Shown piece after piece: positions 7,789 through 64,000 of a stretch of DNA of 64,000 bases. The translations under genes and the position numbers were made by a program. Positions within the stretch are counted from its first letter, which is position 1. The number at the start of each line of letters is the position of its first letter. The stretch comes from Escherichia phage vB_EcoM-E33, in sequence record OL780484.1, one strand, 5' to 3'. Under the pieces are notes generated by a model. The model searched no databases, was not told where the DNA came from, and was given only the letters and a program-made list of their open reading frames with translations.

Positions 7789-8583
7789 CTATAGCCAGGA
7801 ACCGTAGATAACACCTGTATTATGCCAAGTAGGAGAACTTCCAGCAACAGCAGCTCCTGCGCCGCCGCCAGCGCCGACTTTTAGAACTTTACCACCATCA
7901 TTCCATGCGTTCTGGCCTGCGGCGCCAGCATCACCGCCATGACCTGAGTGGGCGTTACCATAATTGTATCCACCGCCAGGGCTTTCATAAGAAGCACCAC
8001 CGCCAGAGTATCCACCGCCGCCACCAGGGCCAAATGGACGTCCACCACCACCACCGATATCTTGCCAGTTAGCACCTGAGTGAGGACGATACGCAATGCC
8101 GCCACCGCCGCCGCCACCGCCACAGATAACCCCACCATTATTAATTCTTAAACGACCACCAATATCATTTACAATACAAGTTCCACCCCATTGGCCGTTG
8201 CCATCGCCACCCGAGTGGGTCCAACCACCTTGACCACCTCGGCCCCATATATGAACCCCACCACCAATATTCAATTGAACATATTCGTTTGGAGTATCCC
8301 CATACATAAAGAACAATGGAACATCACGGGTATAAGATACTAATGTACCTGTAAGATTAAACACAATAGGCGCACTACCAGCTTCAAAGCAACGGTCGCG
8401 GAACCACTGCCCATTAAAGTTATGGTCCCCACCTAAAGTATGAATAACTTCAACAGACCGGCCGTTCATATTACTCATCCAAAATGGGACACCCATTCTT
8501 AATCTTACAGCGGCTCCTGCCATCCAAGGGTCTCCTGTCTGCGCCCTTGCAGAAGTTCCTATCCACGGTCCTGCTACTGCCAT
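7789..8583 (-). CDS. 38: gp38 receptor-binding adhesin, T2-type with glycine-rich motifs
   Basis: 264 aa from the internal ATG preceded by GGAGG; poly-Gly blocks ([22 protein letters not shown]) separated by variable segments. Confidence 0.8.
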
Positions 8584-22167: not shown

Positions 22168-22197
22168 GTTTACACCAGGCTATGGTAGTGATACTAT
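22168..22197 (+). promoter_or_regulatory. T4-type early promoter with spacer inverted repeat (ggctat/atagcc)
   Basis: GTTTACA, spacer, GATACTATAG. Confidence 0.5.
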
Positions 22198-22222
22198 AGC
22201 CTTATCAACTAAGGAGAATAAA

Positions 22223-23905
<1,683 letters not shown>

Positions 23906-29400: not shown

Positions 29401-29429
29401 TTTACATCTCCTCATGACGTGTTAGTATA
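29400..29429 (+). promoter_or_regulatory. T4-type early promoter embedded in a stem-loop (tctcctcat ... atgaggaga) whose 3-prime arm is the SD of the alc-position gene
   Basis: GTTTACA, spacer, TAGTAT; inverted repeat read from sequence. Confidence 0.5.
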
Positions 29430-29458
29430 GACTTACCAACTAATGAGGAGAAAACAAA

Positions 29459-32652: not shown

Positions 32653-32682
32653 GTTTACACTATGGTAGGACTGTGGTATAGT
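32653..32682 (+). promoter_or_regulatory. T4-type early promoter with a stem-loop in the spacer (ggtaggact/agtcctacc)
   Basis: GTTTACA, 17 nt, TATAGT; inverted repeat read from sequence. Confidence 0.5.
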
Positions 32683-32712
32683 AGTCCTACCGAAACAAAT
32701 GAGGAAATCGAA

Positions 32713-34967: not shown

Positions 34968-35105
34968 ATAATATGGATTGGCTGCCGGACTAGTTAGTTA
35001 ACCGGAGAATCCTAAGCGGTGGACTACAACTGAGAGACTTGCCGAAAGGAAGTGAAATTCAGAAGAACGTGTCCACCAATCTTTATCTCGAATTGAGAAA
35101 CTAAA

Positions 35106-35354
35106 ATGAACAAACAATTGAATCACGCTCTTGAACTGCAACGCAACGCTTGGAACAACGGTCACGAAAACTACGGCGCATCTATTGATGTTGAAGCCGA
35201 AGCACTGGAAATCCTGCGTTATTTCAAACATCTGAATCCTGCTCAGGCTACTCTGGCTGCTGAACTGGAAGCTAAAGATGAACTGAAATTTGCTAAGCCT
35301 TTGGCTTCAGCAGCTCGTAAAGCAGTACGTCATTTTATTATTACCCTGAAGTAA
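35106..35354 (+). CDS. rIII: rIII lysis inhibition accessory protein
   Basis: 82 aa; synteny 31-rIII-30.x; size identical to T4 rIII. Confidence 0.7.
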   Translation: MNKQLNHALELQRNAWNNGHENYGASIDVEAEALEILRYFKHLNPAQATLAAELEAKDELKFAKPLASAARKAVRHFIITLK

Positions 35355-35616
35355 GTTAAATCGAGGAGCCGTCGAACTGTTTGATTAATGATTTGCGAAT
35401 CATTATAGTTTTAAGACCCCAACAGTTTTACGGTGTACCTCTTGAATGTATTTTGTACTATCACGCGTCAGAAAAAGGTTATCTGTCTAAGTCGTGGTTG
35501 GTATGATGACGAGGTTTATGGTTATCCTGTCGTTAAATATCCGAAACCTATGTTCCCCTTGAGGGCTTGCGCAGGCAACGCCAATAAGTCCTGCATCCTA
35601 ATTTAAGAGATTTAAA

Positions 35617-35778
35617 ATGGCTAAGAAAGAAGTTAAAGTAGTTGACGGTACCTCTAAACGCGCTGGTTACAAGCGTGCGTCCAACAAGCGTATCAATCAG
35701 GTAGTTGATAAGCTTCAAGCTCGTGCTCGTGCAGTATTGCGTGCAGATGCTGCTTGCTTTGGTAAGCCTCAGGCATAA
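35617..35778 (+). CDS. small basic protein, 53 aa
   Basis: ATG with good context; codon usage like highly expressed genes; followed by a terminator; below the ORF-track cutoff. Confidence 0.4.
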   Translation: MAKKEVKVVDGTSKRAGYKRASNKRINQVVDKLQARARAVLRADAACFGKPQA

Positions 35779-35783
35779 GTTAT

Positions 35784-35808
35784 GGGACTCTTCGGAGTCC
35801 CATTTTTG
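35784..35808 (+). terminator. intrinsic terminator (gggactc-UUCG-gagtccc plus T-run)
   Basis: hairpin plus TTTTT. Confidence 0.65.
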
Positions 35809-35830
35809 TTTCTAAATCTTTAAAAAAAGG

Positions 35831-35860
35831 GTGTACATCTCCGGTAGGCATGATACTATA
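35831..35860 (+). promoter_or_regulatory. T4-type early promoter heading leader-repeat copy 1
   Basis: GTGTACA, spacer, GATACTATAG; ctccggt/accggag inverted repeat pairs the spacer with the downstream SD. Confidence 0.5.
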
Positions 35861-35900
35861 GACATGTACCAAATAATACTAAAACAAACCGGAGAATAAA

Positions 35901-36233
35901 ATGAAAACTGTAAATCTGAATGCATCTGTTAAAGCTAAATGTTTCAACGGTGAATATCAAGAAACCATGTGGGTCCTGACTGCAGTTGAAGGTGATATCA
36001 TCGAAGTTGAAACAACTGAAGGTATGGGTACTGATTTTACATTCACCATCGAGCTTCACAACTTCTTTACAGGTTGGATTTATGAACTGAAAACTGTAAT
36101 TACTGGTCGTATTGAAGAAAACAAAAATGGTGAATTCTATTATGTTAATGCCCGTACACGTGCTGAACGTCTGATTGCTCAGATGAAAAAAGTTGGTAAA
36201 CTTGATATGAAAAATTGGAATGTTGTGAAATAA
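35901..36233 (+). CDS. hypothetical protein, 110 aa
   Basis: ORF track; RBS GGAGAATAAA. Confidence 0.55.
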   Translation: MKTVNLNASVKAKCFNGEYQETMWVLTAVEGDIIEVETTEGMGTDFTFTIELHNFFTGWIYELKTVITGRIEENKNGEFYYVNARTRAERLIAQMKKVGKLDMKNWNVVK

Positions 36234-36235
36234 AT

Positions 36236-36265
36236 GTTTTACTTTGGTACAGGTTGTGTTATTAT
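36236..36265 (+). promoter_or_regulatory. T4-type early promoter heading leader-repeat copy 2
   Basis: GTTTTAC, spacer, TATTAT; ggtacagg/cctgtacc inverted repeat. Confidence 0.45.
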
Positions 36266-36306
36266 AGACCTGTACCAAATAATACGAAAACAAACTGGAG
36301 AATAAA

Positions 36307-36672
36307 ATGAACTACATCAACTTCGAACGTAAATATGTTTCTAACGGTATCGCTGGTTCTTCTGAAGTTATTTGCCTGTGGAAACACAACAACGGCGCGG
36401 TGTGCGAAATCGAACAGTGCATGACTCCTAACTACGTTTATATGCGCTTTGAAAATGGTATTACGGTTTCAATCACAATGGAAGGTTCTACTTTTAAAAT
36501 CGCTTTAGATGATGATTTCCGTCAACGTGATTTAGGTACCCATCCTTGCTGGAACGGTGTTAATCGTAAGCTTCTGGTTAAAACTTGGATTCGACACATC
36601 CTGAGCAACCGAGCTAAACCTGAACACCTGGAAGCAATCTTTGATGTAGTTCTGAACGAATTCGACATCTAA
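36307..36672 (+). CDS. hypothetical protein, 121 aa
   Basis: ORF track; RBS GGAGAATAAA. Confidence 0.55.
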   Translation: MNYINFERKYVSNGIAGSSEVICLWKHNNGAVCEIEQCMTPNYVYMRFENGITVSITMEGSTFKIALDDDFRQRDLGTHPCWNGVNRKLLVKTWIRHILSNRAKPEHLEAIFDVVLNEFDI

Positions 36673-36713
36673 TCTTAAAAATGGAGGCTTCGGCCTCCTT
36701 TGAGGAAAATATT

Positions 36714-37001
36714 ATGTTTATGACCACTTATTTCGATACTCGTAAAAATTTCTGTGAAGTTGTTTTCTCTAAAGCAGGTAAAGACGTTCCTGCCGACAAA
36801 CAACCTACTCGTGAATCTATTAAGGCCTATGCTGATGTTGTATGTCCAGTAGAATTCCGTACTGTTAATGGTCGTGATACCTTAGCAATCACTAAGCTCA
36901 ACCGTGATATCAATATCGACCCTAGTGCCGCCCGTGAAGTCAACACCTCTGACATCTACGGCGGTAATGTTAAATCACACGGCTTTCAGATGAGGTTCTA
37001 A
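36714..37001 (+). CDS. hypothetical protein, 95 aa
   Basis: ATG after GAGGAAAATATT; upstream hairpin ggaggc-UUCG-gcctcc. Confidence 0.5.
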   Translation: MFMTTYFDTRKNFCEVVFSKAGKDVPADKQPTRESIKAYADVVCPVEFRTVNGRDTLAITKLNRDINIDPSAAREVNTSDIYGGNVKSHGFQMRF

Positions 37002-37195
37002 TGCAACTATTTTTATCGCAAACAGTCCAGTTAAAAGGTGTAGGTATTCCTGGAATGATTTCAAAGGTTCTACCTGCTTTTAAATTAGGTAATGTTACTA
37101 TTAAAGAAGCCTACACCGTCCTATGGGTCGATGGAACTGAAGATGTTCGCATGGGTGGTGAACTGTCTGTAATCAAATGTTTAAAGCGAGGATAA
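37001..37195 (+). CDS. hypothetical protein, 64 aa
   Basis: ORF track. Confidence 0.45.
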   Translation: MQLFLSQTVQLKGVGIPGMISKVLPAFKLGNVTIKEAYTVLWVDGTEDVRMGGELSVIKCLKRG

Positions 37196-37196
37196 T

Positions 37197-37409
37197 ATGG
37201 TTAAGAAATTGATTCAGAAATTATTAGGTACGGAAATGGTCGAAGTGACTTATCGTGTGACTGATTTATCTCCTGTGCATCCGCAAGATGAACCATATAC
37301 TAAAACAATTAAAATGCTGAAATCTGATGGCGGATTATCTATTGAAGACCGTCTACCTGGTTATGGTCATTGGGCTGATGTCGAAATTATAAGTGTCAAA
37401 GATGTCTGA
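37197..37409 (+). CDS. hypothetical protein, 70 aa
   Basis: ORF track. Confidence 0.45.
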   Translation: MVKKLIQKLLGTEMVEVTYRVTDLSPVHPQDEPYTKTIKMLKSDGGLSIEDRLPGYGHWADVEIISVKDV

Positions 37410-37860
37410 GTTAGAAATAAGAAGCAATTTTCCATGGCCATCGTGTGCATTAAGTAACTTTGCTAAATGGCCTTTCGTTATGGATGGTATCCAATTTGGA
37501 GGGCTCGAAGGATTCCTCCAAGGGTGTAAGGTGAGAAATCATGAACAACAAAAACGTATATTTGGGATGTCCGGTCTGGCCGCACAACAAACTGGAAGAG
37601 CTTATGCAAGAGCTGCGGACCGTGGGACGCTTTTCTGGCTTGGAATTCCCTTTTCAAGATACTCTACATCATGGAAAGAGTTGTATACAAATGCATATTT
37701 TGAAGCAGCGCTCCAAAACAAAGGATTCCGCGACGCATTACAAGCTACAAAGGGCAAAGTTTTAAAGCATTCGATGGCGAGCCACCTTACAGAATGTGAT
37801 ACAATACTAACTGAAAAAGAGTTTATCGACATCCTAAACAAATTGAGAGATTTATTATGA
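37393..37860 (+). CDS. NADAR-like (YbiA/DUF1768-like) protein, 155 aa
   Basis: SNFAKWPF ... DGIQFGGLEGFLQGCK resembles the NADAR N-terminal core motif; the C-terminal part is divergent. Confidence 0.45.
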   Translation: MSKMSELEIRSNFPWPSCALSNFAKWPFVMDGIQFGGLEGFLQGCKVRNHEQQKRIFGMSGLAAQQTGRAYARAADRGTLFWLGIPFSRYSTSWKELYTNAYFEAALQNKGFRDALQATKGKVLKHSMASHLTECDTILTEKEFIDILNKLRDLL

Positions 37861-40532: not shown

Positions 40533-42428
40533 ATGTCCGAACAATTGAATGAGGTATTTGATGGTGATATAAATTTATCTGCTGTCAATTTAAACCCTAA
40601 ACTTAAAGTCCCACAGATTTGGAATATAAAGGCTGAAGGTAACGAGAACCTTGTTGCCCGCATGGTTTCATATACTTCCGAAGGCGATGTAATTCGTCAG
40701 GTTAAGCCTGGTGACAAGTATGTTCATGTCGTTTTAATGAGCCTATCGGCTAAAGGTTCTCCTGCCGAACTCAAAGGTGGATTAGGTACCAATCCTATTT
40801 CCGCTATTCGTTCTATATTTGATATCGTCTATGAACAGGTCAAGGCCCTTCGTATGGACGCTGTTATGTTCCGTTTTCCTACCAAGAAAATGAAAGGGCA
40901 GGAAAAAGCTATACAGAGGGTATTGGCTAAATTAATAGCCTCTAGAGCAGGCGGACAGTTTAAAGTTCTTGATGCCTTGTATCAATTCACCGGTAAGCAT
41001 TCGTATGTTTTTATCTATCGTAAAAATAAAAATATAGAATCTATAAATGGTATTCCTAATATTAATTTAGAATTGTATACTAAAGTCGAATCTGAAGTCG
41101 GTGACGTGTATGTTTCAAAGAAAACAGGCGAAGATGTTACCAAACTAGAAGCTATAGCTAAGTCCATAGACGAAATAGAAAAATCACGTTCTGATAAAAC
41201 TGTTATAACCAAAACAAAGGTTTCTAAACGTGCTGCTATCAATGCTTTATATCCTACAGCAGAGCCTACAGGATTGAGTAAATTTTCGGCAGAGCACAAA
41301 AAAGCTTATGCAGATTATTCTGCTACTAGTTCCGTTCATTCTTCTGAAGATTCTAAAGAAAGCCAAATAGCTTTAGCCAGTAATAAAATATTAAAAGACA
41401 CCTCTAAAGAAATGGCAGAATATTTGGATTATATTTTTAACGGTGTTAATCCATCATTTGAAGTAGACGAGCGCAAACTTAAACTAATTGCTGATATAAA
41501 GTTTGCTTTAGAGGCATCAGATTCTTTAGATAAATCTAATAGTGTCATAGAGGCTTTAAAATCAGGTAAATCTCATGTAGACATTCTTAGACTAGTCGCT
41601 GCGGCCCTTTTAGATGATTCAGTTAAAGGTACTTGGGCTAGAGAATCTAAAATCAAGGAAGTAATAAAATCCTTAGTAGCAGTTTATACAAAATCTATCC
41701 AACCATTGTTTAAGATATCTGATAATCCTAATTTATCCAAACCTCAAGAAGAGGCAGTCAAAAAGTATACTCGTGGCGGCTACAACCATATAAACAACTT
41801 TTTGCTAGGTAAAACAGATACCACCGATGAAATGATAAAAATGATGGGTGAGTTGGATTCTACATTTGAAAATGGTACAAAACTTCCTAAAGGAACCATA
41901 GTGTATCGTTCTCAGATAATGCCTACCGAAATGGCTTTGAATTCTATAAAACATAAGGTGATGTATCTTCCTATTTTTGCATCAACTTCATTGGCTCCTA
42001 ATATTTTCGGTGAAATGGGTCATGCTCAATCCAACTTAGACCCTGAAGCTCTTTCTAGCGATATAGATAGTAATCTTGAAGACACCATTAAAAGTGCGAC
42101 CGGAAGTGCTAGAGATACCATTAAGCTAGGGTTAATTATTAAAGGTGCTGATAAAATTAAGGTTATTGTGCCCGGTGACTTGGCTAATTGGTCTACAGAA
42201 ACCGAAGTAATTCTTCCTCGTGGGGTTATGCTTAAGATTAATAAAGTATACGGTGCTTCCAAGGGACCTATGGGTTCAATTGGTAAATATGTTTTAGTGG
42301 AATGTGAAGTTGTAGCTACCGAGCAAATCACAGAGGAAAATTCATATAGCACCGGATTCTCGTTTGGAAATTATGATAGAATTATGTATGAAGATTCTAT
42401 GGAAAAATTAGCAAATTTATTTAAATAG
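40533..42428 (+). CDS. Alt-like ADP-ribosyltransferase paralog 1 (631 aa)
   Basis: about 230 aa N-terminus shared with the two downstream ORFs; C-terminal YRSQ ... ASTSL ... ETEVILPRG (R / S-x-S / E-x-E ART triad). Confidence 0.7.
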   Translation: MSEQLNEVFDGDINLSAVNLNPKLKVPQIWNIKAEGNENLVARMVSYTSEGDVIRQVKPGDKYVHVVLMSLSAKGSPAELKGGLGTNPISAIRSIFDIVYEQVKALRMDAVMFRFPTKKMKGQEKAIQRVLAKLIASRAGGQFKVLDALYQFTGKHSYVFIYRKNKNIESINGIPNINLELYTKVESEVGDVYVSKKTGEDVTKLEAIAKSIDEIEKSRSDKTVITKTKVSKRAAINALYPTAEPTGLSKFSAEHKKAYADYSATSSVHSSEDSKESQIALASNKILKDTSKEMAEYLDYIFNGVNPSFEVDERKLKLIADIKFALEASDSLDKSNSVIEALKSGKSHVDILRLVAAALLDDSVKGTWARESKIKEVIKSLVAVYTKSIQPLFKISDNPNLSKPQEEAVKKYTRGGYNHINNFLLGKTDTTDEMIKMMGELDSTFENGTKLPKGTIVYRSQIMPTEMALNSIKHKVMYLPIFASTSLAPNIFGEMGHAQSNLDPEALSSDIDSNLEDTIKSATGSARDTIKLGLIIKGADKIKVIVPGDLANWSTETEVILPRGVMLKINKVYGASKGPMGSIGKYVLVECEVVATEQITEENSYSTGFSFGNYDRIMYEDSMEKLANLFK

Positions 42429-42436
42429 GATAGATT

Positions 42437-44518
42437 ATGACCCAATTAAATGAAGTGTTCGAGTCCGAAGGTACACTGCCTGTTGTGAACTTGAACCCAA
42501 AACTTAAAGTACCTCAGATTTGGAAGATTGGAGACGCGGAGTCTCAGTTAGTAGCACGTATGGTATCCTATGCTTCTGAAGGCGATGCTATTAAACAGGT
42601 TAAGATGGGTGATAAATATGCCCACGTTATCCTTATGAGCCTTTCAGCTAAAGGTACTCCAGCAGAACTTAAAGGTGGCTTAGGCCCTACTCCTATTGAT
42701 GCTATTAATACCATTTTCGACGTAGTATTCGAACAGGTTAAAAAGCTTCGTATGGATGCCGTGATGTTCCGTTTCCCTACTAAGAAAATGAAAGGTCAAG
42801 GCCCTATCGTTCAACGGATTATCCAACGTTTGGTAGCACAGAAAACAGGTGGACGTTTTAAAGTAGTTCCGGCTATGTACCAATTTACCGGTAAACATAC
42901 TTACATCCTGGTAGTTCGTAAACAAGCTGATATAGAAGATATCAAAGGTATGCCTGGAATTAATGCTGAATTGTATACTAAGGTAGATTCTGATGTCGGT
43001 GAAGTTTATATTTCTAAAAAAGAAGGCGTGCAGGTTACTAAAGAAACTGCTATCGCCGGTAGTATTGCTAAGGTTGAAGAACGTCGCACTGATAAAATGG
43101 TTATAACCAAGACTAAGATTTCTCGACGTGCTATTGCAGCAAGTCAATCGTTAGAATCTTATCGTAATGAAAGTGAGCTGTTTAAGAAATATGAAGCTAC
43201 TGCAGTAGATTTTAATAAACCGGCAACAGTTCCATTAATCCCTGAGGCTCAGGAAATGGTTACTAATAACAATTCTCCTGCGGCTAAAAATAAGGTTGCT
43301 AATATAGTGGCTGAAGGCACTGCTGAAGAATTGCATTACGATTATAAAATGTTCCCACTTCACGGTATTGGCGAAATCCAAGAGAAAATTAAAGAGAAAA
43401 TTCTTACAGCAATAAAAAACGAACCTTTGACATCTGTTAAAGCTCTAGAAAAATATGCCTCTGCTATTAATACCATTTTCGAAGAATATAAAGGCGAGTG
43501 GCTGGCTATCCATAACAGAACTCGTAAAGGCCAACCTGATGACCTTTGGAACGAATTGACAGAGGCCAAGTGGAAAGCAGCCAAGACTAAGTTCATTAAA
43601 AAACGCGTGTATAGTTTTGCTGGTGTGGGTGGTGGTATTATGGTTGATATTACTATTGCTCGTGAAGGTTCTAAATATACTCCATCACAAAAGCGTGGTA
43701 TCAGAGAATATTGTGGTTCAGGATATACAGACATAAATAATCTTCTTTTAGGACGTTATAATCCTCAGAACTATGAGGTTATGAGCGAAAAAGATATCGA
43801 ATCCGCTGTAAATAATTTAGATTCAGCTTTTGAAAATGGTGACCGTATACCGGAAGGCATTACAGTTTATCGTGCCCAGAGTATGACTGCTCCTATATAC
43901 GAAGCACTAGTTAAAAATAAAGTGTTTTATTTTAGAAATTTTGTATCTACTTCTTTAACTCCTATAATTTTCGGACGTTTTGGTGTTACGCACGCTGGTA
44001 TTGGTCTTTTAGAACCGGAAGTTCGCAACGAATTGACAGTTGATAAAAATGAAGAAGGAATAACTATTAATCCTAATGAAATAAGAGCATATAAAGAAAA
44101 TCCTGATTATGTTAAAGTTCAAATAGGATGGGCTATTGATGGGGCCCATAAAGTTAATGTCGTATATCCAGGAAATCTCGGAATAGCAACTGAAGCCGAA
44201 GTTATTCTACCGCGTGGATTAATGGTCAAAGTTAATAAAATAACAGATGCTTCTAATAATGATGGAACAACATCTAGTAATACAAAACTCATTCAAGCTG
44301 AAGTTATGACAACAGATGAGCTTCAAGAATCTGTGGTATATGATGGTGATGTACTAATGGAAACCGGCGAGTTGGTCGTATATCAAGATGACTTCGATAC
44401 TTCCGAAAGCCCCTTATCTTTTGATTCATTTGTTAAATCTACACGGTTTGATGTACTGCCTCTTTTGGCTTCATGCATAGACCTCTATGACATCCCAGAA
44501 AAATTCATCCAAGGGTAA
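42437..44518 (+). CDS. alt: Alt ADP-ribosyltransferase (693 aa), likely the T4 alt ortholog
   Basis: C-terminal GITVYRAQSMTAPIYEALVKNKVFYFRNFVSTSL and EAEVILPRGLMVKVNKITDAS match my recollection of T4 Alt. Confidence 0.7.
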   Translation: MTQLNEVFESEGTLPVVNLNPKLKVPQIWKIGDAESQLVARMVSYASEGDAIKQVKMGDKYAHVILMSLSAKGTPAELKGGLGPTPIDAINTIFDVVFEQVKKLRMDAVMFRFPTKKMKGQGPIVQRIIQRLVAQKTGGRFKVVPAMYQFTGKHTYILVVRKQADIEDIKGMPGINAELYTKVDSDVGEVYISKKEGVQVTKETAIAGSIAKVEERRTDKMVITKTKISRRAIAASQSLESYRNESELFKKYEATAVDFNKPATVPLIPEAQEMVTNNNSPAAKNKVANIVAEGTAEELHYDYKMFPLHGIGEIQEKIKEKILTAIKNEPLTSVKALEKYASAINTIFEEYKGEWLAIHNRTRKGQPDDLWNELTEAKWKAAKTKFIKKRVYSFAGVGGGIMVDITIAREGSKYTPSQKRGIREYCGSGYTDINNLLLGRYNPQNYEVMSEKDIESAVNNLDSAFENGDRIPEGITVYRAQSMTAPIYEALVKNKVFYFRNFVSTSLTPIIFGRFGVTHAGIGLLEPEVRNELTVDKNEEGITINPNEIRAYKENPDYVKVQIGWAIDGAHKVNVVYPGNLGIATEAEVILPRGLMVKVNKITDASNNDGTTSSNTKLIQAEVMTTDELQESVVYDGDVLMETGELVVYQDDFDTSESPLSFDSFVKSTRFDVLPLLASCIDLYDIPEKFIQG

Positions 44519-44521
44519 ATA

Positions 44522-46645
44522 ATGGAAAATTTAAACGAAGTTTTTGATAGTGATTCCGCTAAAAACTATCCAGTAACAAATCTTAAACCGGGTTCCGGTA
44601 TTCCACAGATTTTCTCTATCCAAGCGCCAGGTAACGATAACCTGGTTGCTCGTATGGTATCTTATGCGTCTGAAGGCGATGCTATTAAAATGGTTAAGCC
44701 AGGCGATAAGTACGTCCATGTCATCCTAATGAGTTTATCTGCTAAAGGCGCCCCGGCAGAACTCAAGGGTGGTTTGGGTACCGATCCACTCGGTACACTG
44801 AACACCATTTTCGATACCATATATGAACAAATAAACAAACTTAAAATGGACGCGGTTTTGTTCCGTTTCCCTACTAAGAAAATGAAAGGTAAAGGTCCTA
44901 CCGTTCAGCGCGTATTAGCTCGCTTGGCTATGGCTCGTACCGGTGGTAAGTTTAAAGTTGTTGACGACATGTTCCAATTCAGCGGAAAACATACCTACGT
45001 TCTTTTAGTACGTCGTGGTGCTAATATTGAAGATATCAAGGGTATGCCTGAAATTAATGCCGATCTTTATACTAAAGTTGAGTCTAAAGTTGGCGAAGTG
45101 TATGTTTCTAAGAAAACCGGCCAGGCTGTAAGTAAGGTCGAAGCCGTAGCGGCATCTATTGCACAAGTTGAAGAGAAACGTACTGATAAGGCTGTCATTA
45201 CTCGTACTAAGATTTCGCGTCGTATGGCAGCGGCGGCGCAGTATTCTACTGCTGAGCCTGAAACTTTGTCCCCTAAAGAATTGCAGGTTTATAACGAGTT
45301 TGAAGCTTCTGTACCGGTTCACACGGCTGAAGGCCCTGAGAATGAAGGTATTGAACAGATTAGTCAGAACTTTAAAAAAGGTGCTATTACCAAAATGCGC
45401 CAGGCTTCTCAGTTTAAATCTAAGAGCGAGGACCTTGCCAACTTTAGATACACTATTGCTCTCACACACGCTTTAATGACTGATAGTAAATTTAAACTAA
45501 ATTATGCTAATAGAGATAAACAAGGGTTTGAAATTTACTCTAATAATATGGCATTTTTTAATACAGAAGTCGATAGACTTTTAAGTGGCCTTTCGCAAAT
45601 CAATACAACCAATAGTCTGGATATTATTAAGAAAATTGTTAATAACCTGAGTACCCGTTTTAAGGGTTCCCCTTCAGAGAAAGCATCTAGAATTGCTTTC
45701 GCTATGGAAGCCGTTTATAAACTGGTTAACGATTCTATTAGTGATGCATATGCTTATTCAGGCGAGCTCATTAAACCTAAGGACCTAACCAAAGACGAAA
45801 GCAATGCTATTATTGAATATTGCGCGGCTGAATATGCTCCTATGAACTTATTCCTTTTAGGTAAACCTGAATCCGAAAACAATACAACGGCTATTAAATT
45901 GATTAAGGATTTAGACTCGGCATTTACTAAGGGTATTAAACTTCCTAAGGGTACTATTTTGTATCGTGGTCAGGATTTGCCATACAAAATTCTGCGCCAT
46001 AATATCGATAACAAAACATTTTACTTTAAGAACTTTGTGTCAGCCTCACTAAAACCTAACATCTTTGGTGAATTTGGTAAAAATTATATGGCCCTCGACA
46101 ACCAAGCCGTTTTTGTTGGCGGTGAAGGTTCTTTGTCCTCAGCTGATGAGTTGTTTAAATTGGCTAGTGGTAGTTCATCTGATGTGGGTGAAGTCGATGA
46201 CGAAGAGGTAGAATGGGAAGAAGACGAGTTCGGTAATCCAATTGCACCTGAAGGTCCTGCGGATAGAATTGCTGAAATTGGTATGGTTATTCGAGGTGCT
46301 GAAGCAGTTAAAGTTATCGCTCCTGGTGACCTTACAGAATATGCCGAAGAAGCAGAAATTATCCTTCCGCGTGGATTATTGTTGAAGGTTGATAAAGTAG
46401 CGGCTTTTGCCATGAATGATAGAGTATCTCACAAATACCTTATGGAAGCTACCGTAACGCCTCCTTCAGAGCTCAGCGAATCTGTTTACGATGGCGACCA
46501 TTTGATGGAAACTGGTGAAGTTCGCCTGATGGATGGATTCAGTCAATTCTTGGTTAATGAATCCGTTTCTGAAAGCAACGAAGCTATGGAAATCCTTGCC
46601 GCGTCTTTGGATATCTCTTCTTTATCAAATAAATTCAAAATGTAG
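44522..46645 (+). CDS. Alt-like ADP-ribosyltransferase paralog 3 (707 aa) with an acidic insertion
   Basis: shared N-terminal module; YRGQ ... SASL ... EAEIILPRG; acidic segment DVGEVDDEEVEWEEDEFGN. Confidence 0.7.
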   Translation: MENLNEVFDSDSAKNYPVTNLKPGSGIPQIFSIQAPGNDNLVARMVSYASEGDAIKMVKPGDKYVHVILMSLSAKGAPAELKGGLGTDPLGTLNTIFDTIYEQINKLKMDAVLFRFPTKKMKGKGPTVQRVLARLAMARTGGKFKVVDDMFQFSGKHTYVLLVRRGANIEDIKGMPEINADLYTKVESKVGEVYVSKKTGQAVSKVEAVAASIAQVEEKRTDKAVITRTKISRRMAAAAQYSTAEPETLSPKELQVYNEFEASVPVHTAEGPENEGIEQISQNFKKGAITKMRQASQFKSKSEDLANFRYTIALTHALMTDSKFKLNYANRDKQGFEIYSNNMAFFNTEVDRLLSGLSQINTTNSLDIIKKIVNNLSTRFKGSPSEKASRIAFAMEAVYKLVNDSISDAYAYSGELIKPKDLTKDESNAIIEYCAAEYAPMNLFLLGKPESENNTTAIKLIKDLDSAFTKGIKLPKGTILYRGQDLPYKILRHNIDNKTFYFKNFVSASLKPNIFGEFGKNYMALDNQAVFVGGEGSLSSADELFKLASGSSSDVGEVDDEEVEWEEDEFGNPIAPEGPADRIAEIGMVIRGAEAVKVIAPGDLTEYAEEAEIILPRGLLLKVDKVAAFAMNDRVSHKYLMEATVTPPSELSESVYDGDHLMETGEVRLMDGFSQFLVNESVSESNEAMEILAASLDISSLSNKFKM

Positions 46646-59860: not shown

Positions 59861-61133
59861 CTAAAGGCGGTAATTTTACGCCGAGATAAGAACTCAATTG
59901 ACTTTGATTAGCCATTTTGTCCATATCAGAACCATCAATAATGCGGGCTTCTTTATCGTCCTTAGCGACGGTATAAGGGTTTGCAGTCAATGCATAACGA
60001 GCAAGCAATGCTACTGTAGGTTGTAAGCTTTCCGGGTCAACAATAACCTTAAATTCACCAACTGAAGTATCACCTTCTTCGTCAACCACATTCAAACCTT
60101 CCGTATAAGGCGCATAATATAAAGATGCGACCGTCTGTCCTTCACCCATCTGGGCATTTACACCAACAATAACATAATCACATGGACTATTCATATCAGC
60201 ATAAAGTGGTAGGCCATTCTTTAATATACCATAAGCCAATTCGTCCTGGTCTTCCTTTTTCTCAACCCAACCAGAGGCGGCGAGAATAGCAGCACAACGA
60301 GAACTAGCTACTGCATAAGTCCCGGCAAAAGAAGTCTGTCGTTGGACGGCAGAGTTCATCTCACACATATAATAATATAATGTGCGAGCACGGTCCTGGG
60401 CATTATCGTAGCGAGGGTTGGTAAGGTCTAATACACCCTTTTCAGAAACACCCCGGACTTTAAAACGAGAGCTCACGGTAATTAATGACTGTAATACATC
60501 CTTATTAATTTCTTCTGCCATTTGAATGCCTAGCAGATTTTCAACGAAATTAGGAGCATTAAACCCGTTAGATTCTAGGTCTTGGGCTAATTCGACTGTC
60601 AATGAAGTTTTCAGTTTACGTGATTTAACTTCAGATTGCCATTTGTCGATACGGAATCCGGTTTCAGCAATTTCAGGATGGCCTTGTTCAAATTTAGAAG
60701 TAATAGCAGCATCCGACACCATACGGATATGGCCGGCTGCCACTGCTTCAGAAATAACTTCGCTGAGGTTGGTTTCTGTGGTTCCGGCGAAAGGAGATGC
60801 TTCTAGAACTTTAAACACTACGCTTTCAAACTGGAACATATCACCGACCGCATAAGCTGTAGATGAATCAGTAAATTCTGGAATATTTTCACGTTCCGTC
60901 ATACCAATCTGGCCCGCAAATGTTGCTCCACCAAGATAAGTCATTTTGTCGTCAGGATTCAGTACACGTACCCCATACAGAGCAGCAACCGGTTGATTTG
61001 TTTTTTGTTCAGCAACTAGGGCTTTAAAGATTCGTTTATTAGTTGCTTGGGTGTATGAAAGAAGAGCAGGACGGCCAACCGAGCTGGCAGCCGTCAATGT
61101 GGATTCTTTAATTAGGTCTACAATCTTAGACAT
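59853..61133 (-). CDS. gp24-like head vertex protein, paralog A (426 aa)
   Basis: about 55-60 percent identical by eye to the adjacent gp24; shared blocks RKLKT-LTVELAQD-ESNGF-AP-F, EINKDVLQSLITVS, ANPYTVAKDDKEAR. Confidence 0.75.
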   Translation of the reverse strand: MSKIVDLIKESTLTAASSVGRPALLSYTQATNKRIFKALVAEQKTNQPVAALYGVRVLNPDDKMTYLGGATFAGQIGMTERENIPEFTDSSTAYAVGDMFQFESVVFKVLEASPFAGTTETNLSEVISEAVAAGHIRMVSDAAITSKFEQGHPEIAETGFRIDKWQSEVKSRKLKTSLTVELAQDLESNGFNAPNFVENLLGIQMAEEINKDVLQSLITVSSRFKVRGVSEKGVLDLTNPRYDNAQDRARTLYYYMCEMNSAVQRQTSFAGTYAVASSRCAAILAASGWVEKKEDQDELAYGILKNGLPLYADMNSPCDYVIVGVNAQMGEGQTVASLYYAPYTEGLNVVDEEGDTSVGEFKVIVDPESLQPTVALLARYALTANPYTVAKDDKEARIIDGSDMDKMANQSQLSSYLGVKLPPLEK

Positions 61134-62416
61134 TAATCAGCCTCGTAAATAATTGCCGGAAGTTTAACGCCAACCAGATAAGACATATTGCTCTGTCCAG
61201 CCATTAAATCCATATTGGTTGCATCGATAACACGAGCTTCTTTATCGTCTTTAGCCACGGTGTACGGGTTAGCTGATAGTGCATAACGAACCATCAGAGA
61301 AATAGAAGGTTGTAATGAATCCGGGTCAACAATAACCTTATAAGCACCGACGTGTTCTTGGTCATCTAAATCTAAGCCTTCGGTATAGGGAGCGTAGAAA
61401 ATAGAACCGACAACTTCATTACCGCCGTAATTCTCTTTAACACCAACGGTAACATAATCTAATGGACTGTTAACGTCACAAAACAGAGGCAGACCATTCA
61501 ACAAATATCCGTATGCAGTTTCCGGAAGCCAATTATTATCTTCGGGTTTATGTTTTAACCAGCCAGAACCTGCAAGCATTGCAGCCACACGACTTGAAGC
61601 CACAACAAACGTGCCAGAATAAGAAGTAGTTTTCTGGATTTCAGAATTCATCTCACAAACGAGTTCATAAAGTTTACGTGCAGATTCAGGAGCACTGTCA
61701 TAAGACAAATCGATGATGCCGTTATCAGATACACCAGTAACTTTATAACGTTTGGATACGGTTATTAGAGATTGCAGAACGTCTTTATTAATTTCATCTG
61801 CCATTACTGTAGCCAAGAGGTCTTCTAAGAACGCCGGCGCGTCAAAGCCATTTGATTCCATATCCTGCGCTAATTCTACAGTCAAAGCCGTCTTCAATTT
61901 ACGGGTCTTAACCGGAGCATTCCATTTATTAACCTGGAATACAGCATCAGAGATTTCTACATCACTCGCTTCAAATTTAGTGGTATGGGCAGCATCAGGA
62001 ACCAGACGACATGTTAATGACACTAAACCTTCTTGAAGAGCATCAGCCAATTCTGTGGCGCTAGTGGACGCGAGTGGGCTTGCTTTAAGAGCCTTATAAA
62101 CCACATTCTGGTACTTGAAATATTCACCCTGAGCAATCGCCTGGGCCTTATCTGTGAGTTCTGGGATAGTTTCACGGTCTTTAGAACCAACTTCACCACC
62201 ATAAGAGGCACCTGTCTGGAAACTAAATTCATTATCAGGGGTAAGATATTTGACACCATACAGTGCAGCAATAGGCTGGCTAGTACGTTGTTCGGCGATA
62301 ATATCACGGTAAATCAATTTGGTTGTAGCACGGGTCAAAGCAACAAGATTAGGGCGACCCAATGAGTTGCTGGAAGTAGTTGTTGACTCGCGCAGTAATT
62401 CGTTAATCTTTGCCAT
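61133..62416 (-). CDS. 24: gp24 head vertex protein (427 aa), closest to T4 gp24
   Basis: N-terminus MAKINELLRESTTT-SNS-GRPNLVALTRATTKLIY and long collinear similarity to remembered T4 gp24. Confidence 0.9.
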   Translation of the reverse strand: MAKINELLRESTTTSSNSLGRPNLVALTRATTKLIYRDIIAEQRTSQPIAALYGVKYLTPDNEFSFQTGASYGGEVGSKDRETIPELTDKAQAIAQGEYFKYQNVVYKALKASPLASTSATELADALQEGLVSLTCRLVPDAAHTTKFEASDVEISDAVFQVNKWNAPVKTRKLKTALTVELAQDMESNGFDAPAFLEDLLATVMADEINKDVLQSLITVSKRYKVTGVSDNGIIDLSYDSAPESARKLYELVCEMNSEIQKTTSYSGTFVVASSRVAAMLAGSGWLKHKPEDNNWLPETAYGYLLNGLPLFCDVNSPLDYVTVGVKENYGGNEVVGSIFYAPYTEGLDLDDQEHVGAYKVIVDPDSLQPSISLMVRYALSANPYTVAKDDKEARVIDATNMDLMAGQSNMSYLVGVKLPAIIYEAD

Positions 62417-62833: not shown

Positions 62834-64000
62834 TTAGATACCTTTAACATATACGCGACGGAAGTAACCATTCAGACCAAGGCTGTTAACGATGTCAGGC
62901 ATACCATTCTGGATACGTTTGGTAGGAGCCTGAGCAGCAGGGTCAGCGAACGGGTTGATACCGATACCGTAACGAGTTTTGAAGCCCATTACCGGTTGGA
63001 AGTTCTTCGGATCGGAACCACGCAGCGGGGTCAGTGCAACGTACGGAGCATAGTAGATACCTGCGTCCATTTCGTTAGCGCCTTTATAACCGATGGTGAA
63101 GTAATCGGAACGTGCATACTGGTCGATGTAAACGCGATATTTACCACCAAGAACACCGGCAAATACTGCTTTGGTTGTGTCAACGTTGAAACCTTGACCC
63201 AGACCTTGAGCTGCATAACTTACAGAAGTATCAACTGCAGCCAGTACGTTAACTACGTTACGGGAAGCGATGATGAAGTTACCAGCACCACGACCGGTCT
63301 GACGAGCGATTTCGGCTGCTTCTTTATCAATCTGGAACAGAAGGGCTTTAAAGCTCTCACCGGCCCAACGAGCACCACGGATATCAATCGGGTCCTGGAA
63401 GTCAAACACACCAGCTTTAGCGCCAACGGTGTTGGTCATACCAGATTTACCAACCTGTGCAGAGTAGTTAATCCAATCGATAACTTCACGGTTGATTTCG
63501 AGCATAATTTCGGTAGCAAGGATACCGGACAGTTCAGCATCTGCATCCATACCGTGTACTGCACGAAGGTCCTGTGCCAGTTCGATAGAGTAGCTTGCTT
63601 TCAGCTGACGGGATTTAGCTTCGATAACTTGTTTGTCGATGCGGAAGCCCATTTCGTTCCACGGGTTATCGGTAGAACCGTTAAAGCCTTCCTGAAGTTC
63701 GGCGATAGAAGTAGCCATACCTTCAGCCAATTCAGCCAACTTACCAGCTTCAATCAAAGCGGTAACAGCAGCATCCAGTTTAGCGGCATCAGTAGCAGCA
63801 GCATCAACGGTTACGGCTTCAACAGCCTGGAAGTGTGCAGCACCGGTAGCTTCGAAGAAGTGAGAATAAATTTTACCAACTTCCAGAACTTTGCTTGCCG
63901 CCAGTGCTTCGAAAGTTTCAGCAGCACCCTGACCAGAGAACATAGCGTCTGGAGAATACATCGGATGGAAAGCTTCTTTAGCGCCAGAAGCGATAGGGTC
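62834..64000 (-). CDS. 23: gp23 major capsid protein, C-terminal part (5-prime end of the gene lies beyond the window)
   Basis: ORF open to the window edge; codon usage of a highly expressed gene; C-terminus GYFRRVYVKGI. Confidence 0.85.
   Translation of the reverse strand, partial: DPIASGAKEAFHPMYSPDAMFSGQGAAETFEALAASKVLEVGKIYSHFFEATGAAHFQAVEAVTVDAAATDAAKLDAAVTALIEAGKLAELAEGMATSIAELQEGFNGSTDNPWNEMGFRIDKQVIEAKSRQLKASYSIELAQDLRAVHGMDADAELSGILATEIMLEINREVIDWINYSAQVGKSGMTNTVGAKAGVFDFQDPIDIRGARWAGESFKALLFQIDKEAAEIARQTGRGAGNFIIASRNVVNVLAAVDTSVSYAAQGLGQGFNVDTTKAVFAGVLGGKYRVYIDQYARSDYFTIGYKGANEMDAGIYYAPYVALTPLRGSDPKNFQPVMGFKTRYGIGINPFADPAAQAPTKRIQNGMPDIVNSLGLNGYFRRVYVKGI

Follow-up and report, generated by a model that had tools for sequence, protein, structure and literature searches.

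Near-identical leaders of genes 30.8 and 30.7 in a T4-type Dhakavirus: two adjacent predicted early promoter cassettes and recombination at the same locus in relatives

Studies have shown that T4-type phages carry promoter early stem-loop (PeSL) cassettes, which consist of a stem-loop, an AT-rich tract, a promoter of the form -35/N17/-10, a Shine-Dalgarno (SD) sequence and an ATG (PMC2839356, PMC4122927). They are known from RB49/phi1 (Arbiol et al. 2010, PMC2839356) and from PST/T4 and nt-1/KVP40 (Comeau et al. 2014, PMC4122927). The promoter consensus of the T4/PST type is TTTACW-N17-TAYWAT (PMC4122927), and the subclasses have the stem-loop upstream of -35, between the boxes, or overlapping -35 or -10 (PMC2839356). 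Recombination between neighbouring PeSLs deletes or circularises the intervening open reading frame (ORF), with crossovers between the -10 box and SD/ATG (PMC2839356, PMC4122927). In this study, we analysed a stretch of 64,000 nt from Escherichia phage vB_EcoM-E33 (OL780484.1), called the window below, in which two near-identical 47-nt leaders stand before the adjacent genes 30.8 and 30.7. We believe it highly probable that each repeat forms the downstream half, from -10 to ATG, of one of two neighbouring PeSL-type early modules driving 30.8 and 30.7, that the core of the leaders was homogenised by conversion in Dhakaviruses, and that the shared blocks were used as crossover points in relatives. 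The anatomy of the modules, the lineage-specific homogenisation of their leaders and the recombinant junctions in relatives are documented here. PeSL-mediated modular shuffling has already been published (PMC2839356, PMC4122927), and the locus is a well-documented new instance of it.

The internal-protein (IP) locus of T-even phages resembles the present one in that early-promoter-based repeats flank small swappable genes (Repoila et al. 1994, via PMC2839356, PMC4122927), and differs from it in being another locus with other genes. The early promoters of T4 have a UP/-35/TGn/-10 architecture (Hinton 2010, PMC2988021), which is also found in the two promoters studied here, P30.8 and P30.7. For efficient cleavage of T4 early mRNAs by RegB/S1, an 11-nt single-stranded GGAGAAUAAAA at the intergenic SD is reported to be required (Durand et al. 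2006, PMC1702504). As in the RegB/S1-sensitive early leaders of T4 (PMC2988021, PMC1702504; Uzan & Miller 2010, PMC3014915), the SD at the present locus lies within the exact 11-nt motif, in a leader predicted to be single-stranded. With the PeSLs of T4-type phages, the locus shares the composite layout, the many copies among small non-essential early ORFs, the indels and replacements of close relatives with junctions within the element, and crossovers between the -10 box and SD/ATG. Unlike them, it has neighbouring elements made alike across the full stretch from -10 to ATG (up to 47/47), with a non-consensus core included; its cargo consists of conserved T4 genes, not ORFans; and it forms a natural crossover series in three homology blocks and two genera, phage T2 included. 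Mini-circles excised by recombination between neighbouring elements during infection were detected in the RB49 work, by inverse PCR or deep sequencing of infected cells or virions (PMC2839356).

Anatomy of the repeated leaders

The two copies of the 47-mer, which lie 406 bp apart on the + strand (Table 1), were 44/47 identical by exact search and differed at leader positions 8 (35864 A / 36270 C), 24 (35880 T / 36286 G) and 34 (35890 C / 36296 T). The first-pass annotation had reported near-identical 47-nt leaders with three differences, and the search agreed with it, except that its first coordinate was one base early. The ungapped repeat was extendable to 55 nt at 91% identity (repeat family D16). 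No further match to the 47-mer with <=3 mismatches was found in the window or in 100 dinucleotide-preserving shuffles. Among the 15 early-promoter leaders in the window, the 30.8/30.7 pair was an outlier, with an identity of 0.94 over the 47 nt ending at the ATG, while the other 104 pairs had a mean of 0.68 (sd 0.07, max 0.87). The halves upstream of the -10 box in P30.8 and P30.7 were 0.63 identical, as is usual in the family (average 0.62).

Because a T4-type early promoter precedes each repeat, the 47-mer starts with the last 3 nt of the -10 box and continues through the discriminator and a ~35-nt 5' untranslated region (5'-UTR) to the ATG. The shared block spans only the segment from the -10 box to the ATG, and the -35 boxes and spacers of the two promoters differ. 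The idea of a shared promoter-leader, put forward in the first-pass annotation, thus holds for the leader but not for the promoter as a whole. The window contains ~18 early-promoter elements of the form GTTTAC-17/18-TGnTAnnAT, all on the + strand. The activity of P30.8 and P30.7, like the transcription starts at ~35865-35867 for 30.8 and ~36271-36273 for 30.7, is predicted from the consensus, and host RNA polymerase would start at ~35866 and ~36272.

Both elements fit the published PeSL cassettes as far as their layout can tell. Their promoters read GTGTAC(A)-17-TACTAT with TGa (P30.8) and TTTTAC(T)-17-TATTAT with TGt (P30.7). A stem-loop is present in each, namely a 9-bp hairpin with a T-run upstream of P30.8 and 12-bp arms around the -10 box of P30.7, the latter overlapping -10. 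At the hairpin position before P30.8, different complementary stems are found in T4, Mosigvirus and other lineages, and the P30.7 palindrome is conserved in T4, Mosig- and Gaprivervirus. The AT-rich sequence is clear before P30.8 (35804-35830). P30.7 has no separate AT-rich tract, because its upstream sequence is the coding end of 30.8 together with the stop codon (in all, GTGAAATAAATG); the promoter begins 4 nt past that stop codon, and the T4 arrangement is alike. An SD and a start codon close both copies, and indels and replacements with junctions inside the element are found in the allele swap, C6, the Mosigviruses, T2 and JM10, all described below.

Both leaders end in GGAGAATAAAATG, in which the SD, the RegB/S1 site and the start codon are combined, with GGAG 6 nt upstream of the ATG. 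They match the RegB/S1 consensus GGAGAAUAAAA (GGAGRAYARAA) at 11/11 positions, and cleavage by RegB at both leaders is predicted from their sequence. The 11-mer GGAGAATAAAA occurs in 3 copies in the window vs 0.09 expected. The third exact copy is at 22213-22223 (+), downstream of an early promoter at 22168-22197.

Table 1. Features of the 30.9-30.8-30.7 region (positions in the window)
Feature	Position	Strand	Evidence or description
Gene 30.9, 53 aa, upstream neighbour	35617-35778	+	ORF list; annotated 30.9 in IME08; phrog_1427
Terminator-like hairpin: 9-bp stem, TTCG loop (35782-35803), then T-run	35782-35813	+	terminator scan; stem-loop part of the putative 30.8 PeSL
AT-rich UP-like tract AAATCTTTAAAAAAAGG upstream of the P30.8 -35 box	35814-35830	+	sequence
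Predicted early promoter P30.8	35831-35859	+	-35 GTGTAC (35831-35836), 17-nt spacer, TGa, -10 TACTAT (35854-35859); pattern scan
Predicted anti-SD arm TCTCCGGT inside the P30.8 spacer	35838-35845	+	forms an 8-bp perfect inverted repeat (shuffle p=0.006) with ACCGGAGA at 35888-35895
Repeat copy 1	35857-35903, extends 35851-35905	+	last 3 nt of -10 box, discriminator, ~35-nt A-rich 5'-UTR, SD, ATG of 30.8
GGAGAATAAAA in leader 1	35891-35901	+	SD and exact 11-nt RegB/S1 consensus
Gene 30.8, 110-aa T4-type allele, bracketed by both repeats	35901-36233	+	PF06019, E=6e-48
Predicted early promoter P30.7	36237-36265	+	-35 TTTTAC (36237-36242), 17-nt spacer, TGt, -10 TATTAT (36260-36265)
12-bp perfect inverted repeat TTTGGTACAGGT / ACCTGTACCAAA enclosing the P30.7 -10 box	36243-36254 / 36268-36279	+	0/500 shuffles; stem-loop part of the putative 30.7 PeSL
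Repeat copy 2	36263-36309, extends 36257-36311	+	-10 end, discriminator, 5'-UTR, SD, ATG of 30.7
Second GGAGAATAAAA, in leader 2	36297-36307	+	SD and RegB/S1 consensus
Gene 30.7, 121 aa	36307-36672	+	PF06919, E=1.5e-51; 93% identical to T4 gp30.7
GC-rich hairpin GGAGGCTTCGGCCTCC between 30.7 and the closely following SD of 30.6	36683-36698	+	palindrome scan; closes the two-gene unit; T4 has an equivalent hairpin

Homogenisation in one lineage and crossovers in relatives

The window comes from a T4-type myovirus that falls in the Dhakavirus group, with 99.7% identity to vB_EcoM_FB and ~96% to the Dhakavirus IME08, and its gene order, cd-31.2-31.1-31-rIII-30.9-30.8-30.7-30.6...30, is that of T4. 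The region has matches in ~770 genomes. The identity between the two leaders within one genome was 62% in T4, 64-70% in other T4-type contigs, 85% in the Mosigvirus-like contig L023 and 87-100% in Dhakaviruses, and the two leaders of IME341 (L024) were identical at 47/47 positions. Both promoters stand at the corresponding places in T4, despite its 62% leader identity. The homogenisation is maintained across ~45 Dhakavirus records, and the three differing sites are polymorphic in copy 1 among Dhakavirus strains, some of which have the copy-2 state. In VR5 (L007 / L045), the 30.7 leader ends in ...CAAACCAAAGGATAATAAAATG, with GGAT for GGAG and a 3-nt insertion, the SD/RegB box being altered in one copy only, and the two leaders of this genome are no more than 0.87 identical.

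As neighbouring small ORFs that are comparable in length (110 and 121 aa) and have similar leaders, the two might be thought to come from a tandem duplication of leader and gene, after which the coding regions diverged beyond recognition. The first-pass annotation had called the two proteins dissimilar and had named homology between them as the sign of such a duplication; this homology was looked for and was not found. Between gp30.8 and gp30.7, there was no similarity by BLASTP (E=25) or by profile-profile comparison (hhalign probability 1.95%, 13-sequence vs 8-sequence profile), and the proteins fall into distinct families (PF06019 vs PF06919; PHROGs 1507 vs 1582). Moreover, because the T4 leaders are only 62% alike though they precede the same two genes, the similarity of the leaders is recent and the genes are old, which is the opposite of what duplication followed by divergence predicts. 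With BLASTP, Pfam, PHROGs and hhalign all in agreement, a tandem gene duplication is effectively refuted. Profile searches of solved structures with gp30.8 and gp30.7 gave nothing meaningful, and a literature search for the two proteins returned nothing relevant.

The leader ends are widely shared: TATAGACNTGTACC is similar to the start region found throughout the family, and GGAGAATAAAATG forms the RegB/SD block. The 20-nt core AAATAATACKAAAACAAACY is common to Dhakaviruses only; it is not kept at the orthologous positions in T4, Mosig- or Gapriverviruses and is absent from the other promoters in the window. It may be asked whether selection alone, with no recombination, keeps the leaders alike through their start region, their S1-binding A-rich stretch and their RegB/SD box. 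In favour of such pure functional constraint, the leader ends are conserved across genera and promoters (TATAGACC... is found in ~8 window promoters), and GGAGAATAAAATG, a defined functional site (PMC1702504), stands before 30.8 in most lineages. We nevertheless consider constraint alone very unlikely, given the distribution of the core, the recombinant junctions directly observed inside leaders of relatives, and a 47/47 identical leader that occurs in a Mosigvirus as a short imported patch.

Another explanation is that the shared core is a selected cis-acting RNA element, a translational enhancer or protein-binding site that co-regulates 30.8 and 30.7, and that conversion was fixed for the sake of this co-regulation. 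The own-promoter leaders are predicted to be unstructured and A-rich, as expected for S1-dependent initiation, and the persistence of the homogenised state over the Dhakavirus records agrees with this explanation as well. Against it, the core varies freely in other genera with the same genes, leader 2 of VR5 has a different SD region, no Rfam family was matched, and any binding factor is hypothetical, so we regard such an element as unlikely. The sub-threshold Rfam hit to mir-12 (E=0.68, 19.9 bits vs a gathering score of 55) was caused by the palindrome and was rejected as chance.

The scans of IMG/VR returned 27 and 14 loci, and GenBank phages were more informative. Two alleles of 30.8 are both common among Dhakaviruses, a 110-aa T4-type allele (the window, QL01, JS98, VR5) and a 122-aa allele (IME08, IME341 and others), which are 43% identical to each other on a backbone that is otherwise 96-100% identical. 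Gp30.8 of the window is 78% identical to that of T4 and 43% to the IME08 allele. Between the window and IME08, the identities of 30.9, leader 1, the 30.8 coding sequence, leader 2 and 30.7 were 99%, 96%, 50%, 100% and 98%, respectively, and one breakpoint of the allele swap lies just past ATGAAAA, where leader 1 ends with its ATG, and the other at the P30.7 -35 box. In the Dhakavirus C6, ORF219 with its own terminator is inserted exactly between the 30.9 terminator and the P30.8 -35 box, that is, between the hairpin of the 35782-35813 type and the AT-rich tract. Integron cassettes are likewise small single-gene units exchanged at repeated boundary sequences. They depend on a dedicated site-specific integrase and attC sites and are usually promoterless, whereas the units here carry their own promoter and their exchange appears to use general homologous recombination at short homology patches.

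When an artificial leader-to-leader deletion junction was used as the query, single-piece matches were found in eight Mosigvirus records. In PTE-Eco05 and AV109, the complete Mosigvirus 30.8 promoter and leader are fused at the ATG to 30.7, with the crossover in GGAGAATAAAATGAA; the same leader precedes 30.8 in O157tp3, CCU7 and L023. In AV118 and SQ17, 30.8 is lost and the switch from 30.8-type to 30.7-type sequence falls within a TGTACCA block. JM10, which is also without 30.8, is 99-100% identical to PTE-Eco05 except for a ~170-bp patch of Dhakavirus type from the -10 box to ~+115 of 30.7, which is 96% identical to the window, and its leader is 47/47 identical to leader 2 of the window. All T2 records, wild type included, have the 30.8 promoter and leader of T4 joined to 30.7 within the 10-nt GGAGAATAAA box, while the T2 relatives wV7, ESh25 and SH7, with flanks 99.2-99.4% identical, retain the extra 400 bp. 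The junctions of T2, PTE-Eco05/AV109 and AV118/SQ17 therefore document crossovers in each of the three shared blocks. The check called for in the first-pass annotation, whether different ORFs follow the same leader in relatives, came out positively, since the Mosigvirus 30.8 leader stands before 30.8 or 30.7 and that of T4 stands before 30.7 in T2.

The leader type is also found elsewhere. At 1221-1353 in Klebsiella phage Metamorpho (L048, Jiaodavirus), a similar set of terminator, promoter and TATAGACCTGTACC...GGAGAATAAAATG leader precedes an unrelated 71-aa gene; the leader resembles the 30.8 leader of contig L012, and the gene adjoins an NrdC.10 homologue. This type of leader is therefore carried by different cargo at a different locus and in a different genus as well. 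Over 35000-37500, the phages QL01, WG01, 04086 and ABTNLS3, 98-99% identical otherwise, are 220-306 nt longer than the window. As they are colinear with it over 35560-36760, there is another indel nearby, possibly in the 260-nt rIII-30.9 gap.

Could one of the two genes have been imported literally as a cassette, inserted together with its leader via the resident leader, so that the repeat is an insertion scar? PeSL cassettes can in principle integrate as mini-circles (PMC2839356), T2 and several Mosigviruses are without 30.8, and in many lineages 30.8 is not followed by 30.7. Nevertheless, the order 30.9-30.8-30.7 with a promoter before each gene is common to T4, Dhaka-, Gapriver- and Mosigviruses, and 30.8 of the window is as diverged from that of T4 as its flanks are (77% over one continuous alignment). 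The genomes without 30.8 have hybrid elements and close 30.8-positive relatives, which fits deletion. We thus find such an import quite unlikely, and 30.8 and 30.7 appear here as conserved T4 genes in ancestral order, not as shuffled-in cargo.

We believe that the near-identity of the leaders is best read as the outcome of in-situ gene conversion (concerted evolution) in the Dhakavirus lineage, rather than of imported cargo, because it is lineage-specific. On this sequence evidence, it would be both a substrate and a by-product of recombination, not the scar of a cassette import. The ancestral modules would have had nothing but their ends in common, namely the start region with TATAGACNTGTACC and the block GGAGAATAAAATG. 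Gene conversion seeded by these shared ends would then have homogenised the variable core that lies between them in the Dhakavirus lineage, giving the direct repeat of 47-55 nt. The shared blocks would serve as substrates for the phage homologous recombination system, and in relatives they would have acted as crossover points in the precise loss of 30.8, the replacement by a divergent allele, the insertion of an ORF and the inter-genus leader patch. The first-pass annotation had seen in the repeat the signature of cassette shuffling by recombination between regulatory sequences. The natural recombinants at this locus largely bear this interpretation out, with one correction: here the two genes keep their ancestral position, and the near-identity probably arose in situ.

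Predicted pairing within the early promoters

The least expected part of the locus is an anti-SD pairing embedded in the promoter, which is predicted by RNA folding. RNA that reads through the 30.9 terminator would carry TCTCCGGT, which would pair with ACCGGAGA and cover the 30.8 SD. The predicted P(unpaired) of the 30.8 SD in read-through RNA and in own-start RNA was 0.00 vs 0.49 in the window and 0.04 vs 0.75 in T4, respectively. The T4 pairing involves different sequences (TTCCTTTGT / ACAAAGGAG), and its arm is in the 3' part of the spacer, whereas the Dhakavirus arm is in the 5' part. The spacer arms are not positionally homologous across genera. A G-C / G.U / A-U series (window / IME08 / C6) was rejected as covariation, since the fold of C6 left the SD unpaired at 0.61. 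The SD-hiding effect was strong and beat shuffled promoters in 7/14 lineages or strains, and it was marginal in L011. From these folds, we infer that read-through RNA may hide the 30.8 SD, so that 30.8 would be translated only from its own promoter.

The 30.7 palindrome behaves differently. In read-through RNA, it is predicted to form a hairpin of -20.2 kcal/mol that leaves the SD free (0.79); therefore, 30.7 could be translated from the 30.8 transcript as well as from its own. The own-promoter leaders are predicted to have a minimum free energy of 0 to -0.1 kcal/mol, and as unstructured leaders with a free SD, they should be good substrates for ribosomes first and for RegB later.

The review by Uzan & Miller 2010 (PMC3014915) describes hairpins that sequester the SD and have a late promoter inside them in four T4 genes, e, soc, 49 and I-TevI. 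As in these genes, the SD is covered by the 3' arm and the 5' arm precedes the proximal start, with long transcripts predicted to be untranslatable and proximal ones translatable. Unlike in these genes, the internal promoter here is of the early sigma-70 type instead of late, and its spacer contains the 5' arm. The SD is predicted to be paired in the long transcript for 30.8 and not for 30.7. With no late internal promoter, the 30.8 element may act like the e/soc family without being a member of the described set. In the searched passages of the T4 reviews, SD-sequestering hairpins with early promoters are not described; within those parts of the sources, the descriptions of RNA-level insulation concern a few late-promoter cases and do not make it general to early promoters or PeSLs.

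In 5/18 window promoters, the -10 box is enclosed by a perfect inverted repeat of 8 bp or more; 300 trials of the null gave 0.26 such promoters on average and never more than 2. We put forward, tentatively and with doubt prevailing, that many T4-type early promoters may be deliberately built into hairpins, with the 5' arm in the -35/-10 spacer and the 3' arm formed by the SD/RegB box or the start region. At that gene, RNA reading through from upstream would then be in a folded state that is neither translatable nor open to RegB, and the RNA in use would be that from the gene's own promoter alone. If this is true, each early-gene cassette would have a second insulation, in its RNA, besides its terminator. 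The same palindromes may make these elements recombination-prone.

Elsewhere in the window, inverted repeats were found at four other promoters. At 1200-1210 / 1236-1246 and 29407-29415 / 29443-29451 they pair the spacer with the SD (11 bp and 9 bp, respectively), and at 32664-32672 / 32683-32691 and 22177-22183 / 22196-22202 the partner of the spacer is the transcription-start region (9 bp and 7 bp, respectively). The folds of read-through RNA hide the SD at the promoters at 1195 and 29400.

Weight of the evidence and meaning of the locus

Several points weigh against our explanation of the locus. No sequenced Dhakavirus lacking 30.8 was found with the artificial deletion junction as the query, although this lineage has the longest repeat. 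As none is without 30.8, the repeat is not visibly destabilising in Dhakaviruses; either selection retains 30.8 or deletions are rare. Some of the junction classes without 30.8 could derive from one another by secondary patch conversion instead of independent deletions, and for JM10, descent from a PTE-Eco05-like genome is clear. Conversion may have run in either direction, as the Dhakavirus core is similar to the 30.8 leader of Mosigvirus (0.80/0.70) as well as to the 30.7 leader of Gaprivervirus (0.65/0.75). Finally, SD sequestration is not predicted for C6, L012, L014, L022, L025 and L026 (6/14), and SD hiding, with 7/14 on the other side, is therefore recurrent but not universal.

The window also holds other repeats. 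Directly after the DNA ligase gene, at 40533-46645 (+), three tandem paralogous ORFs (631, 693 and 707 aa), each with the ADP-ribosyltransferase domain PF03496 and looking Alt-like, account for the repeat families D1, D2, D8 and D9. At 8012-8260, there are proline-codon-rich imperfect repeats (CCACCGCCGCCACC...) with spacings of 90 and 123 nt (family D14). Paralogous segments at 59868-61499 and 63749-63776, ~1.28 kb apart and 70-79% identical (D6, D15, D18), suggest tandem paralogous genes near the right end of the window.

Short regulatory repeats drive the loss of genes, the replacement of alleles and the exchange of leaders in T4-type phages, and the locus preserves an unusually clean natural record of this. 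Crossovers have taken place in three distinct homology blocks, one of which, the RegB/SD box, is only 10 nt long, and one of the phages on record is T2, a laboratory classic. It also indicates that neighbouring promoter-leaders can be homogenised by conversion, which provides a longer substrate for recombination. For phage engineering and annotation, 30.8 is flagged as a dispensable, dimorphic accessory gene that lies between ready-made recombination sites.

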